Below are positions 21,680 to 26,147 of a stretch of DNA of 64,000 nt, one piece after another (position 1 is the first letter of the stretch; every line of letters begins with the position of its first letter). The stretch lies in IMG/VR virus record IMGVR_UViG_3300045988_085459; one strand, given 5' to 3'. The position numbers and the translations under genes were made by a program. Under the pieces are notes generated by a model that saw only the letters and a list, made by a program, of their open reading frames with translations, did not search any database and was not told where the DNA came from. Source of the DNA: a virus.

Positions 21680-21937
21680 ATGATTACTGTTGGTAAAAAT
21701 ACAGCCAATAAAATTATATATGGCGCGATTCATTTTTTATGTGATTACCAAAGTGATGTTGCTAATCTCCCTACAAACCGAAAGCCAGGCAGTTCGGCAT
21801 ATGTAATTGAAAATGGAAATAAATATATTCTCAATTCTGATCATGAATGGGTGTTGTAGCCCTCTGGTGGAGGCGGAGATTAGCCTCTTCCTCCAGAAGA
21901 TACAACTATTATTTATGATGGCGGACTAATTGGCTAA
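21680..21937 (+). CDS. hypothetical protein, 2 in-frame TAG
   Basis: ATG 21680 after AAGAAAGGAGAA SD; frame stays open through TAG at 21857 and 21881 to TAA 21935. Confidence 0.5.
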
Positions 21938-21951
21938 AGGAGGGAGTGACT

Positions 21952-22512
21952 TTGGCTGAAGTTGTTTATAAAACAATATTTTAGTTCAAGCGAGGAACAT
22001 CAGAGAAGTGGACCGAATTAAATCCAATTCTTCGTCAAGGTGAGCCGGGATTTGAAATAGATACTGGAAAGTTAAAAATTGGAGATGGATCCACCGAGTG
22101 GAAATAGTTAAAATATATAAATAGTAGTTTGGTAAATGTTGATGTAGACAATCAATCTATTGTTATTGATGGAATTGGACAGATTTCATTAAAAGGATTT
22201 ACAGAAGCATCAACAGGGCAATCTATTAGAAAAAGAGAAGATGGCACATTAGAGTGGTATACTCCAATATCTTAGGATAAAGTAATAGAAACTATCTCTA
22301 TCGGAAATAAAGATTTGCCGGTTGAAGATAATAAAGTTACTATTCCGGCGGGAACAGAAGAAAATCTTGGTTTAATTAAGGGGAGTAGTTAGAATAACTA
22401 GATAAAAATACTTTCAGATGGAACCGGAGAAATTAATTCTGTAGGACTTGATAAAATAGTGGATGTTGAAGGTTTTACTTTAATATTAAACTGTGGGACA
22501 GCAGTAGACTAA
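21952..22512 (+). CDS. tail fibre N-terminal-domain protein, 5 in-frame TAG
   Basis: TTG 21952 (or GTG 21946) after AAAGGAGGG SD; KRGTSEKWTELNPILRQGEPGFEIDTGKLKIGDGSTEW matches the conserved N-terminal motif of phage tail fibre / HylP-like proteins. Confidence 0.55.
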
Positions 22513-22532
22513 AATAAGGAGGCATTTTAAAG

Positions 22533-23594
22533 ATGGTCAATGAATTAAAAACTAGAATCCAACTTAGACATGATACCGAGGAAAATTGGACTTCAGTTAA
22601 GGACTCCTTTATTCCTCTCGTTGGAGAGGCTTGTCTTACCACTGATGGCGAGAATAAAGGAAAAGTAAAATATGGTGATGGAACAAGCACTTGGGGTTAG
22701 TTAGAATATTCTGGTGGAAAAGATATTGTAGAAGTTGATTCATCTATTGTAAAATTTGATGATGATTTTACATTTACCTATACTTTTGGTAAATATGCTC
22801 CTGGAGGAGATGGATCTGTTAATATTCCCGCGACTGGAAAAACATTAGATCAATTACTGCTAGATGCTTTTGCGGAAGAAAAAAATCCTACTATTACGCA
22901 ACCTTCTGTTAGTATTTCCTCTAGTCAAATGAAAGCGTATGAAGCAGGCACTAATGTAACTCCAACTTATACTGCAACTTTAAATAAAGGATCTTATCAA
23001 TACGGCCCAGACACTGGAATTACAGCAACCGGTTGGAGCGTCCAATTTGATGAAGAAACAAAAACAGAAGCTACTGGAACTTTCTCTGAAATTCAAGTTG
23101 AAGATGCTACTAATTTAAAGATTACAGCAACAGCTAATTATGGGAATGGAGCTATTCCTGTTACAAATCTTGGTTCTGAATATGCAGAAGGACAGATTAA
23201 AGCTGGATCTAAGTCTAATAGCACAGGAGCTATTACTGGATATCGCTAGATTTTTTATGGAGTTAATAATTCTACAGATCCTTTAACTAGCGCGATTATT
23301 CGTTCTTTAACAGCAAGCAATAAAGCGGCAGCCGCAATGACTATTAATAGCATCAAAGCAAAAAGTGATACTAAGAGAATTATTATCGCAGTTCCTCAAT
23401 CTTCTGGGCTTAAAGTTACTGCAGCTAATATTACTTCTAGTTTGAACGCAGATGTAACTTCTAGCTATGTAAAGCAAGGACCAGTGCAAGTAGAAGGAGC
23501 AAATGGATTTACCGCGGTTCCTTATGATGTATTCGTTTATCAACCTGCTTCCATTGATCCAACTGAGGATCATAAGGTTGTAATTGGAAAGTAA
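22533..23594 (+). CDS. tail fibre protein, 2 in-frame TAG
   Basis: ATG 22533 after TAAGGAGG SD; same N-terminal motif (TRIQLRHDTEENW ... KYGDGTSTW); frame joins track ORFs 22929 and 23337 through TAGs at 22695 and 23247. Confidence 0.6.
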
Positions 23595-23611
23595 GGAAGG
23601 AGGAACAAATA

Positions 23612-24784
23612 ATGGCAGTAATTAACAAAGATATTGCATATATGGCGTTACCTCTGAGTATTCGTAGAGGAAATCCTTTCCCTATTGATGAATATTCAGT
23701 ATGGTATAATATGGAAGAATTAACAACATATGCTCAATCTAGTCCTGTAGCATATGTTGGTTAGGTAGTTACCTTAGTTAATGAAGAAGAAAATACAGTT
23801 GAAGCGTATATGATTCAAAATGCTGCTGGCAATTTAATGAAATTGGCTTCAACTACTGCTTCTGGTGATTTAACGGAAGATGTTTTAGAGCTTCAAGGAA
23901 AAGTTTCCGCATTAGAAACCTCTGTTGGTACCAAAGAAGAAGAAAGTTCAATAACAGCTTCTAATCTTTGGGCAGCCATTGAGGAAGTTAAAGCAGCTTA
24001 TGAAGCAGCTGATAGTTCTATTAATGGAAAATTTAATGATTATTATAATAAAACAGAAGCAGATTCTAAGATTGACCAAAAAATTGCTACTGCAATAAGT
24101 TCAACTTATAAACCTGCTGGTTCCATTATGTTTAGTTTCCTTCCTACACTTGGAGCTGATCAAGAGGGAAAAGTATATAATATTATAGATGCTTTCACCA
24201 CTACTGAAGACTTCGTTGAAGGAGCTGATAATAAATATCCAGCTGGAACTAATGTAGTATGTATTGACACTGATGATGCTGGAACTTACAAATGGGATGT
24301 TCTTGCGGGATTTGTAGATTTAAGTGGATACGAAACTACAAGTAGTGTAGATACTAAGTTAGCTAATAAAGTCGACAAAGTAGAAGGATCATCTTTAGTT
24401 CAAGACACTCTAATTGCTAAATTATAGGGTTTAGCAGAAATCAAAGGAGTCAGTGATGAATTAGAAATTGATCCTGATGATAAAACTCTTGGCGTAAAAG
24501 CGATTGCATAGGAGAAAATTACTGGTCTTCCCGCGGCTTTAGCAGAGAAGATTAAGAGTATAACCGTAGGAACTACTCCTCTTTAGGTTAGCGATGGCGC
24601 AGTTACTATTCCTATTGCTACAGTAGAGGCTCTTGGTGTAGTAAAAAGCACTACTAGTGAAAACGGCGTTTCTATTACAGGCGATGGAACTATGATTGTC
24701 AATAACATAAATATAGAAAAAATTACTTAGACTCTTGGTACAGAGCTTATCTTAAATGGCGGAGATGCTACTGTTAGTGAATAA
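23612..24784 (+). CDS. tail fibre protein, 5 in-frame TAG
   Basis: ATG 23612 after AAGGAAGGAGGAA SD; shares an ~85-aa block (STYKPAGSIMFSFLPTLGADQEGKVYNIIDAFTTTEDFVEG...YKWDVLAGFVDLS) with the next gene. Confidence 0.6.
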
Positions 24785-24809
24785 AAATCAACTTGGAGGA
24801 AGATAAATA

Positions 24810-26147
24810 ATGGCTACAACTTTTAATACAAGAATCCAATTAAAATATGATACTTATGAAAATTGGGATACCAATAACCCCATTCTTCTAAAAGGAGAAA
24901 TGGCGGTTGTTGAAGTTCCTGTTGAAACTGGAGTTGCTCAAAATGAGCCTACCTATTTGTTAAAAATCGGTGATGGCGAATCAGATTTTAAAACTTTAAA
25001 ATGGGTAAGCGGAACTGCCGCTGATGTTTATTCTTGGGCCAAAGCGGCAAGTAAACCAACTTATGCAGCAACTGAAATTACCGGACTCGAAGATTTTATT
25101 GGAGAAAAAGTTCAGGATACCGATACACAATATTAGATTGTTAAAAATGGAGATATGGGCTTTAAGCTTCAATCTAGACCAAAAACTGGCGGATCTTGGA
25201 CAGATGTAAATACTATTTCTCTTACCGCTCCTACTTATAATTTAGCTGAAGGAGCTACTAATGGTACTGTAAAATTTGGAATTACTGGTTCTGAAAAAGA
25301 AGTAAAAGTTCATGGACTTGGATCAGCAGCTTATACTGAATCCAATGCTTATGACGCAGCTGGCGCTGCAGACACAGCAAAAAGCGAAGCTATCGAGGAG
25401 GCTGCTAGTGCCACTGATGAAAAAATTGCAGCTCTAAAAATCAATGAATATGCAAAAACCACAGAAGTAGATTCTAAAATTGGAGCTGCAAAAACAGAGC
25501 TAATTGGTGAAGGAAGTGGTTCTTCCACTACTATTAAAGGTGCTTATGATGAAGCTAAAACCTATACTGATTAGCAAATTGCTGCTAGAATTTCCTCTAC
25601 TTATAAAGCAGGAGGATCTATTGCGTTCGCTTCTCTACCAGAACTAACTGCAACAGAAGAAGGAAAAGTTTATAACATTCTTGATAAATTCACTACTACA
25701 GACGATTTCGTAGAAGGTTCTGGGAAGAGTTATCCCGCGGGTACTAATATTGTTTGTATAGATGTGGGAGAAGAAGAATTTAAGTGGGATGTTTTAGCTG
25801 GAATGGTAGATCTTTCAGCATATGATACAGCAGAGACAGCTTAGGGGAAAATTAATTCCGCTAAACAAGAGGCTAAAGATTATGCAGATTCTAAGGTAAA
25901 CGCTTTAGATAAAGAAGATTCTGTTGTAGCAAATCAATTTGTAATCGCGGTGTCTGAGACTGATGGTATTATTAGCGTAACTCGTGCTCAACCTACCATA
26001 GAGAATATCAACGGGTTACCTGCGGCTCTTGCTAAAAAAGCTAATGATGCAGACTTATCATCTGTTGCTAAAAGTGGAAAGATTGATGATTTAACTTAGA
26101 CTGCTACAATTATTTTTAATTGTGGAAGCTCTAGCACAGTAATATAA
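24810..26147 (+). CDS. tail fibre protein, 4 in-frame TAG
   Basis: ATG 24810 after TTGGAGGAAG SD; N-terminal motif TRIQLKYDTYENWDTNNPILLKGE ... KIGDGESDF; paralogous C-terminal block; frame open to TAA 26145. Confidence 0.6.

Follow-up and report, generated by a model that had tools for sequence, protein, structure and literature searches.

Gene-by-gene use of TAG as a predicted glutamine codon in a widespread human-gut phage

The 64-kb stretch of viral DNA analysed here (IMG/VR record IMGVR_UViG_3300045988_085459; 64,000 nucleotides (nt), hereafter the window) contains, at positions 21680-26147, a block of tail-fibre genes whose reading frames are crossed repeatedly by TAG. Our analysis indicates that the block very probably belongs to a gut phage of about 148 kb in which genetic code 15 (TAG read as Gln) is used in a mosaic manner, gene by gene. 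In the proposed mechanism, UAG would be decoded as Gln by a phage tRNA with the anticodon CUA, leaving TAA and TGA alone to terminate. TAG is as free as any synonymous codon in the fibre genes, in the two lysis genes (49904-52170) and in three genes for homing endonucleases, and the remaining 69 genes are nearly free of it, both as sense and as stop. The original prediction for this DNA had proposed that TAG is a sense codon in a subset of genes, in the pattern of code 15, and this is borne out by coding density, homologues, the tRNA(CUA) and the bias among gene classes.

The fibre block consists of five consecutive open reading frames (ORFs) on the plus strand, of 85, 188, 353, 390 and 445 amino acids (aa), with 2, 5, 2, 5 and 4 in-frame TAGs, respectively, which makes 18 in 1461 codons, and with no in-frame TAA or TGA. 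The prediction had counted four tail-fibre genes with 2-8 TAGs each; the recoding of these genes stands, but the number of genes and the counts had to be revised. Among the off-frame stop triplets of the same DNA 22.8% are TAG, giving P ~3e-12 that all 18 in-frame stops are TAG, and the probability that frames of 353-445 codons are open by chance (no TAA or TGA) is 1e-13 to 1e-16. Translation table 11 splits the block into pieces of 40-205 aa. Codon usage is strongly coding, at 0.38-0.63 bits per codon under a model trained on TAG-free genes only, and open frames on the strand opposite the block do not exceed 81 codons.

Matches to tail-fibre families (Mtd_N, several tail-fibre PHROGs, phrog_38190 and phrog_35541) were obtained for four of the five, and some of these matches cross TAGs. 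In the 353-aa ORF, where the Mtd_N match is weak, the phrog_35541 match crosses the TAG at codon 239, and in the 445-aa ORF, for which 27 related viral loci were found, the phrog_38190 match crosses two TAGs. The 390-aa ORF has a conserved C-terminal LILNGG motif beyond its last TAG. The 85-aa ORF has no Pfam or PHROG match; it is kept, TAGs included, in eight relatives, and one relative has CAA at its codon 68. Sites 13 and 54 of the 188-aa fibre protein align with CAA/CAG in standard-code relatives, codon 56 of the 353-aa ORF is CAG in five standard-code relatives, codon 373 of the 390-aa ORF is CAA/CAG in six of them, and codons 345 and 430 of the 445-aa ORF are CAG/CAA in close relatives.

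The same picture is obtained for the whole window, where three checks named with the original prediction gave results in its favour. The count of TAG against stop usage returned 46 in-frame TAGs in 15 of 79 curated genes (19%), and these 79 genes end with TAA (60) or TGA (19) and never with TAG. Coding density was compared with our own coding-potential caller, which applies a codon-usage filter, and not with Prodigal. Filtered coverage is 68.8% under table 11 and rises to 79.2% when TAG is sense, compared to 69.9% for TGA and 67.3% for TAA, so the gain is specific to TAG. Without the filter the gain in ORF coverage from reading TAA as sense is as large as that from TAG, and it is codon usage that separates the two. 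The TAG-specific gain is also seen in close relatives and in a more distant group of 165-168-kb contigs; other, more distant relatives show no such gain. The third check concerned C-termini: TAG sites never coincide with the ends of homologues. Bacteria and phages with the standard code have sense codons there, mostly for Gln, and related recoded phages have CAA/CAG. Homology to Pfam, PHROG or PDB entries runs across the TAGs of the fibres, the endolysin, the NAGPA/SPOR protein, both GIY-YIG proteins, the PD-(D/E)XK endonuclease, uracil-DNA glycosylase (Ung) and thymidylate synthase (ThyX). Gene calling, terminators, the tRNA(CUA) and homologues are independent of one another and concur that, as far as sequence can tell, TAG is a sense codon.

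The amino acid can be judged from the codons and residues that replace TAG elsewhere. At the TAG sites of the window, the commonest non-TAG codons of relatives are CAA at 15 site-types and CAG at 10, with GAA next at 5, and at sites with TAG in a relative but not in the window, CAA is the most frequent codon of the window (18). Q is also the commonest residue at TAG sites in the standard-code relatives of the fibre genes. The clearest test is provided by the endolysin, which could be aligned with homologues from ~55 standard-code genomes of Oscillospiraceae, Lachnospiraceae and other Clostridia, in which its TAG sites 40, 146, 225 and 274 correspond to Gln in 21/23, 22/25, 43/46 and 47/48 loci, respectively. 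Endolysin TAG sites also align with Gln in the isolated, standard-code Faecalibacterium phage Lagaffe and in the standard-code Dulem virus 33 and MT835491. Summed over all 60 aligned non-TAG residues, BLOSUM62 scores are 127 for Q, 63 for E, 47 for K, -92 for Y, -105 for L and -155 for W. Judged by these alignments, TAG is a Gln codon (code 15).

A suppressor tRNA, which the phage-recoding model demands, is present in the form of the tRNA(CUA) gene. Its product would have G73, an unpaired position 1-72 and no long variable arm, features that fit Gln but also Trp, two identities which the tRNA sequence alone cannot separate. The gene order Ser-Sup-Leu-Cys is the same in eight relatives, and compared to these the window copy has a T-stem pair changed in a compensatory way from C-G to G-C, the mark of a functional tRNA. 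It would presumably be charged by the glutamine machinery of the host and would compete with the host release factor 1, as established knowledge of suppression leads one to expect. The classical amber suppressor supE of E. coli is a mutant host tRNA-Gln(CUA) that has G73 and whose position 1-72 is weak or unpaired; it competes with release factor 1 at UAG and inserts Gln there with partial efficiency. The phage molecule resembles it in the CUA anticodon, G73 and a weak or unpaired 1-72, and would likewise be of Gln type, whereas it differs in being a conserved phage gene that would serve dozens of obligatory sense positions. The phage also has tRNA-Gln genes of its own for both standard Gln codons.

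The use of TAG differs sharply among gene classes. The seven fibre and lysis genes contain 29 TAG, 49 CAA and 5 CAG (TAG is 29/83 or 35% of Gln codons) and the three homing-endonuclease genes 12, 21 and 3 (12/36, 33%), compared to 5, 239 and 136 in the 69 other genes (5/380, 1.3%). The difference from the rest is significant for the fibre and lysis genes (Fisher p = 3e-19) as well as for the homing endonucleases (p = 1e-10), and for the ten TAG-rich genes together (41/119 against 5/380; Mann-Whitney p = 7e-12). The combined share of CAG and TAG among Gln codons is 41% in TAG-rich and 37% in TAG-poor genes, and being thus alike in both sets it implies that TAG has in effect taken the place of CAG. 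In fibre and lysis genes the TAG:CAG ratio of 29:5 matches the TTR:CTR ratio of 89:16, TTR:CTR being the only other synonymous pair that differs by C or T at the first position; TAG therefore behaves there like an ordinary synonymous codon subject to the A+T pressure of the genome. The other genes have a TAG:CAG ratio of 5:136 against a TTR:CTR ratio of 447:190, and TAG is purged from them about 70-fold.

Parts of the remaining ~84 kb of the genome were sampled through relatives and extend this distribution. In a near-identical relative (contig IMGVR_UViG_3300045988_084596, L054) a minus-strand block at 164-7424, located upstream of the early genes of the window, has 52 TAG against 13 CAG, with 12 TAGs in the portal gene, 13 in a 581-aa candidate terminase and 3-11 in each of the neighbouring ORFs. 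The N- and C-terminal halves of the 581-aa ORF match separate short families, phrog_15503 and phrog_24618, which suggests that both families derive from pieces of recoded-phage genes called under table 11. An ORF at 6354-7424 (minus strand) encodes a 356-aa protein with 11 TAGs that matches a PHROG annotated as sigma factor (E = 3e-37), a label without support from a Pfam sigma domain. If this protein were a late transcription factor, its own synthesis would need amber suppression.

Other readings of the TAG codons were weighed against these data. Under the standard code each TAG would be a true stop, so that the genes for fibres, lysis proteins and endonucleases would be decayed pseudogenes or be made as fragments. 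Nothing beyond the default assumption speaks for this reading, apart from the fact that some public contigs of the phage were evidently gene-called under table 11, leaving Ung uncalled or fragmented; public gene calls of close relatives already render TAG as Q. We consider it extremely improbable, since the frames are interrupted by TAG only and never by TAA or TGA, the same TAGs are kept in relatives or swapped for CAA/CAG, coding potential is high throughout the frames, a matching suppressor tRNA is present, and in relatives even essential genes, the portal gene included, have 12-13 TAGs. The opposite extreme, a uniform code 15 in which the TAG-free genes lack the codon by chance, would agree with the absence of TAG terminators from every gene, TAG-free ones included, but it is hardly credible in view of the p values given above. 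A residue other than Gln (pyrrolysine, Trp, Tyr, Leu, Lys or Glu) is suggested by the ARAGORN call 'tRNA-Pyl', by the presence of K, E, N or A at some TAG sites in homologues, and by the tRNA itself, for among 366 typed tRNAs from related phages its nearest are Trp and Gln, tied at 71%. However, 'tRNA-Pyl' is merely the name which ARAGORN gives to a CUA anticodon, and pyrrolysine is further contradicted by an ordinary tRNA cloverleaf, by the lack of pyl genes or Pyl-related Pfam matches among the annotated ORFs and by aligned residues that are Gln and not Lys-like. The four endolysin sites on near-invariant Gln columns, the dominance of CAA and CAG among codon exchanges, and a BLOSUM sum for Q twice that for E, with W, Y and L strongly disfavoured, make any non-Gln decoding very unlikely.

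Transcription signals, a weaker line of evidence, were analysed in relation to the TAG-rich genes. Sites with at most one mismatch to the host-type sigma-70 consensus number 13 on the plus strand and 3 on the minus strand, with about 2 expected by chance, and are thus enriched about 6-fold on the coding strand. Near-consensus sites are found before TAG-free genes and within the tRNA array (seven in the array), while none is present in the fibre block. The only perfect site lies 440 nt upstream of the tRNA(CUA), which suggests that the suppressor tRNA would, if anything, be transcribed early. A 55-nt element occurs in two copies (54/55 identical; no such match in 100 shuffles) and is kept in close relatives. 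Each copy lies just past a terminator-like hairpin, and 80-100 nt separate it from the gene that opens a TAG-containing module. A scan of the sequence collection found it nowhere outside the known close relatives, and its fold is not significantly better than that of shuffled sequences (z = -1.48). It may be a promoter or leader of TAG-containing modules, and these signals taken together are compatible with an organization of the TAG-rich modules as separately controlled transcription units.

Read in this way, code 15 used gene by gene would have two consequences. The 69 other genes, being poor in TAG and terminated by TAA or TGA, would be read in the same way with or without an active suppressor, whereas full-length fibre, lysis and homing-endonuclease products, and proteins with 2-13 TAGs in general, would need a cell containing the phage tRNA. 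Sequence analysis supports the reassignment itself, its reading as Gln, the phage tRNA and the unequal use among gene classes; beyond these, the arrangement might serve late and lytic functions as a timer or safety lock. A delay of translation by recoding is the hypothesis of Borges et al. (10.1101/2021.08.26.457843).

Several observations weigh against this interpretation or parts of it. Besides the tie between Trp and Gln among the nearest tRNAs, no release-factor or aminoacyl-tRNA-synthetase gene is found among the Pfam-annotated ORFs of the window; in the phages of Borges et al. a code-change module with such genes lies by the lysis genes in some clades and is not obligatory. The location of the tRNA(CUA) downstream of a perfect host-type promoter argues against late production of the tRNA. 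A restriction of TAG to late genes, a label taken here from gene function alone, would be an incomplete picture: TAG is just as dense in the three homing-endonuclease genes, it occurs once in each of two small ORFs, in Ung, in ThyX and in the RNA ligase, and in relatives it occurs in a RecJ-like gene (8 TAGs), a FolD-like gene (4) and DnaB (2). The RecJ-like DHH/DHHA1 gene, for which the public call appears to clip the N-terminus, has at least 8 in-frame TAGs in one relative (L046, 14721-16476, plus strand) and belongs to a replication module just downstream of the window. Dense use of TAG is not limited to late genes.

The bias might also be a passive by-product and not an adaptive timer, a possibility that we take seriously while leaning somewhat against it. 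CAG-to-TAG transitions would be neutral where the tRNA is abundant and would accumulate by A+T pressure, being purged from genes needed before or without the tRNA; the reassignment would be unchanged and only the reason for the distribution would differ. The equality of TAG:CAG and TTR:CTR in fibre and lysis genes agrees with such drift, as do the similar CAG+TAG shares, which leave no excess of TAG calling for positive selection, and low G+C has also been proposed by Borges et al. as the driver of the first steps. As the distribution is also expected from neutral drift once suppression exists, an adaptive role is not required by the data. On the other side, neutrality within late genes is compatible with a benefit from the resulting translational lock, recoded lysis genes have arisen convergently in other lineages, and ~70-fold avoidance elsewhere points to strong selection on when TAG is readable. 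A two-layer feed-forward control, instead of a simple wait for the tRNA, appears rather unlikely to us. In such a scheme the suppressor tRNA would be made early from the perfect host-type promoter, and the TAG-rich modules, lacking host-type promoters and each starting with the same 55-nt element after a terminator, would be switched on by the TAG-rich (11 TAGs) PHROG-'sigma factor' of relatives, whose synthesis suppression would license. The phage transfer-messenger RNA (tmRNA) and an ArfA-like peptide would clear ribosomes stalled by read-through of host amber stops.

All elements of this system have already been described for recoded gut phages (PMC9523058; PMC10607447; Borges et al.), so that a known phenomenon is met here and the understanding of phage recoding is unchanged. 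Borges et al. reported Jade, Sapphire, Agate and Lak types with scattered recoded modules. These phages resemble the present one in having a suppressor tRNA of their own, recoded stops mainly in structural and lysis genes and several such modules across a large genome, as well as in variable use in replication genes and in low G+C. The most recoded genes of both include a homing endonuclease, a tail gene and an amidase-type lysin, and recoding touches a minority of genes only (19% here, compared to 26-71% reported). The host group here is probably Oscillospiraceae or related Clostridia. For TAG-recoded crAss-like phages code 15 has been validated by metaproteomics (PMC9523058). They share with the present phage a TAG read as Gln via tRNA(CUA) and recoded late genes; a host with the standard code would be a further common trait. 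However, they infect Bacteroidota and have their recoded genes in one block, whereas the present phage is of another lineage with SPbeta-type replication and is known from sequence alone; DNA similarity to crAss-like phages was not detectable.

Another comparable phage is phAss-1 (OQ749652), a 136-kb human-gut phage of the proposed genus Phassvirus with 36 tRNA genes and in-frame TAG in 28% of ORFs (PMC10607447). The ORFs concerned include structural genes and those for tail fibres, alignments pointed to Gln, and no dedicated synthetase was found (PMC10607447). It is similar in habitat, size, large tRNA set and TAG in fibre genes, but has three tRNA(CUA) genes where the window has one. Although OQ749652 was in the searched collection, it gave no megablast match for 21400-28800 and no blastn match for 50761-57362 and was not among the top protein matches; in view of this lack of similarity in the regions tested, the present phage would not belong to Phassvirus. 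NCBI taxonomy has a 'Caudoviricetes code 15 clade' with phAss-1 under it. What is added to the code-15 phages is a widespread human-gut lineage (~148 kb, SPbeta-like replication genes) and a quantitative picture of one genome in which TAG is fully synonymous in one gene set and ~70-fold purged in the rest. For annotation it matters that table 11 shreds the endolysin, the tail fibres and two homing endonucleases, as it does the portal gene and a possible terminase ORF of relatives, and that such fragments occur in some public contigs and apparently also in some PHROG families.

Table 1. Positions of TAG-containing genes, tRNA genes and transcription signals in the window.
Feature	Position	Strand	Evidence and remarks
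Uracil-DNA glycosylase (Ung)	6610-7323	+	Single TAG, 6715 (codon 36)
PD-(D/E)XK endonuclease, 137 aa	10754-11167	+	TAG 10805; PF11645, E = 4.6e-23, residues 5-124, across codon 18; within tRNA array
GIY-YIG homing endonuclease, 260 aa	16532-17314	+	TAG 16571, 16586 (YIG[Q]T), 16757; PF01541, phrog_7168; within tRNA array
tRNA-Gln(UUG) and tRNA-Gln(CUG)	19649-19800	+	ARAGORN; the phage's own
Terminator-like hairpin, 5' of fibre block	21487-21515	+	12-bp stem, then T run
55-nt element, copy 1	21526-21580	+	Between terminator and fibre block
Small ORF, 85 aa, first of fibre block	21680-21937	+	TAG 21857, 21881; coding score 0.48 per codon
Tail-fibre protein, 188 aa, Mtd_N	21946-22512	+	TAG 21982, 22105, 22273, 22390, 22399; PF18454 Mtd_N, E = 1.3e-12; several tail-fibre PHROGs
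Tail-fibre-like protein, 353 aa	22533-23594	+	TAG 22698, 23247; phrog_35541, E = 4.6e-33, residues 68-340
Tail-fibre-like protein, 390 aa	23612-24784	+	TAG 23762, 24425, 24509, 24584, 24728; phrog_38190, phrog_33094
Tail-fibre-like protein, 445 aa	24810-26147	+	TAG 25134, 25572, 25842, 26097; phrog_38190, E = 7.5e-15, residues 198-423
Terminator-like hairpin, 7 nt past last fibre gene	26154-26194	+	19-bp stem, then T run
Perfect sigma-70 promoter	27132-27160	+	TTGACA-17-TATAAT, preceded by TG (extended -10); upstream of ORF 27173-27508 and suppressor tRNA
Amber suppressor tRNA, anticodon CUA	27598-27672	+	ARAGORN; Rfam tRNA, 60.2 bits; canonical cloverleaf
RNA-ligase-like protein, 423 aa	37769-39040	+	Single TAG, 38363 (codon 199); PF09414, residues 243-391
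55-nt element, copy 2	47731-47785	+	After hairpin; heads module ending with lysis genes
Hypothetical protein, 153 aa	47864-48325	+	TAG 47906 (codon 15); first gene after copy 2 of the 55-nt element
NAGPA (formerly DUF2233) and SPOR cell-wall protein, 284 aa	49904-50758	+	TAG 50135, 50384; PF09992, E = 4.6e-19; PF05036 SPOR
Endolysin, 469 aa	50761-52170	+	9 in-frame TAG; Phage_lysozyme2, Amidase_2 and SLH-like tail; Pfam/PHROG domains across TAGs
GIY-YIG homing endonuclease, 303 aa	59405-60316	+	8 TAG, including YIG[Q]S at 60086; PF01541, homing-endonuclease PHROGs
ThyX thymidylate synthase	60581-61219	+	Single TAG, 60731 (codon 51)

Predictions for individual genes were largely reproduced (Table 1). 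The two TAGs foreseen in the DUF2233/SPOR protein were recovered, and its PF09992 match (residues 52-206) spans both. The endolysin is recoded as predicted, with one TAG more than the eight expected. TAG does fall inside the GIY-YIG motif of two proteins, although the coordinates and motif had to be corrected: in the 260-aa protein the TAG of YIG[Q]T lies at 16586, position 16571 being another TAG five codons earlier, and in the 303-aa protein the motif is YIG[Q]S and its codon is not at 60077. The PF01541 match of the 260-aa protein (residues 1-84) spans all three of its TAGs. Five TAG sites of the 303-aa gene are CAA in a relative with 64% identity, and its product has an N-terminal coiled coil with a likely membrane-anchor segment. 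The PD-(D/E)XK endonuclease was absent from the genes listed originally.

The positions given for the single TAGs of Ung and the RNA ligase agree with ours, while that of ThyX is not at 60728 as proposed. In Ung the site lies within the conserved domain and is internal (alignments with PDB Ung structures begin at residue 3); the aligned residue is Q in the enzyme of Coxiella, while other enzymes have S, V or R. The ThyX site is likewise internal (PDB alignments begin at residues 8-10), at a variable position that is R in actinobacterial enzymes. For the RNA-ligase-like protein no PDB homologue was found by sequence; a likely motif-I lysine (LKMHG) is upstream of the TAG. Its Gln codons are 14 CAG and 2 CAA, the reverse of the other genes of the genome, and the gene may be a recent acquisition. 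A 394-aa table-11 ORF antisense to it (37706-38890) looks spurious. The ATG of the 153-aa hypothetical protein is preceded by an AGGAG ribosome-binding site, and the protein is called full-length in a relative. The first 6.5 kb and the genes for topoisomerase and nicotinamide adenine dinucleotide (NAD) salvage contain no TAG, as had been predicted. Two candidate exceptions in the first 6.5 kb were rejected, as the coding score of ORF 300-536 is negative and the TAG at 4622 precedes the probable start codon, an ATG at 4643.

The window has a G+C content of 36%, and its convincing genes, all on the plus strand, cover ~87% of it when TAG is sense. Many human-gut metagenome contigs of 130-149 kb encode identical or near-identical proteins, which makes the window a portion of a widespread phage of ~148 kb. 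Its replication genes (YorF, YorH, DnaB and Pol III alpha) are of the SPbeta type. No close GenBank phage was found by DNA, as megablast with 21400-28800 and blastn with 50761-57362 gave only short chance-level matches (RNase H and gyrase genes), or by protein, where identities reached at most 50% for the endolysin and 35% for a GyrA-like protein. Two complete-length contigs of this phage type, of 147,780 and 148,971 bp (L133 and L134), are binned in metagenome-assembled genomes named 'uncultured Eubacterium sp.' and 'uncultured Oscillospiraceae bacterium'. Probably these are phage genomes that were binned together with their hosts or that contaminate the host bins. Bins with near-identical 148-kb contigs and the closest endolysin homologues point to Oscillospiraceae, Eubacterium and other Clostridia, and the host is probably a member of the Oscillospiraceae or related Clostridia. 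Homologous genes of these Clostridia read through under table 11, and the host may use the standard code.

ARAGORN finds 31 tRNA genes in the window, to which Rfam adds a tmRNA and two tRNA-like matches at 19970-20086 and 20277-20361 (plus strand; 117 and 85 nt), the first of which could accommodate an insert or intron. The tmRNA (17282-17602, plus strand; Rfam 76.8 bits, E = 5e-28) was missed by ARAGORN in the window and is called in relatives. Its tag peptide is DEDYFENYLAA, and the tag frame ends with TGA, directly followed by TAG. One may speculate that the tmRNA helps to clear ribosomes stalled after amber read-through of host genes. ArfA is an alternative ribosome-rescue factor that recruits release factor 2. 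A 52-aa ORF at 13881-14039 (plus strand) gives a borderline match to it (PF03889, 24.9 bits against a cut-off of 25.5), weak in relatives too. At 12939-12996 (plus strand), ending 5 nt upstream of tRNA-Ser(GCU), there is a Twister-P1-like ribozyme (RF03160, E ~4e-9) with an intact conserved core; its score of 51.7 bits does not reach the gathering score, 67.2. Theta ribozymes reported in recoded phages are likewise self-cleaving elements beside a tRNA, whereas the element here, on the 5' side of its tRNA, is of another class. An HDV-like (theta) ribozyme beside the tRNAs was not detected with Rfam.

Downstream of the suppressor tRNA, a dense set of plus-strand genes for RNA repair and NAD salvage at 34237-46634 encodes an RlaP-like nucleotidyltransferase, an RNase T-like exonuclease, the RNA ligase, Thg1, an AAA_33 kinase, three metallophosphoesterases, a nicotinamidase-like isochorismatase, a PRPP-synthetase-like protein, YqeY, NAPRTase and NAD synthase. 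In this set TAG is found once, in the RNA ligase. The preceding plus-strand genes at 28857-33230, all free of TAG, encode a DUF2828/DUF7788 protein (506 aa), a 93-aa ORF and an 813-aa protein with a shoulder domain of the major vault protein, a vault-like protein being unusual for a phage.

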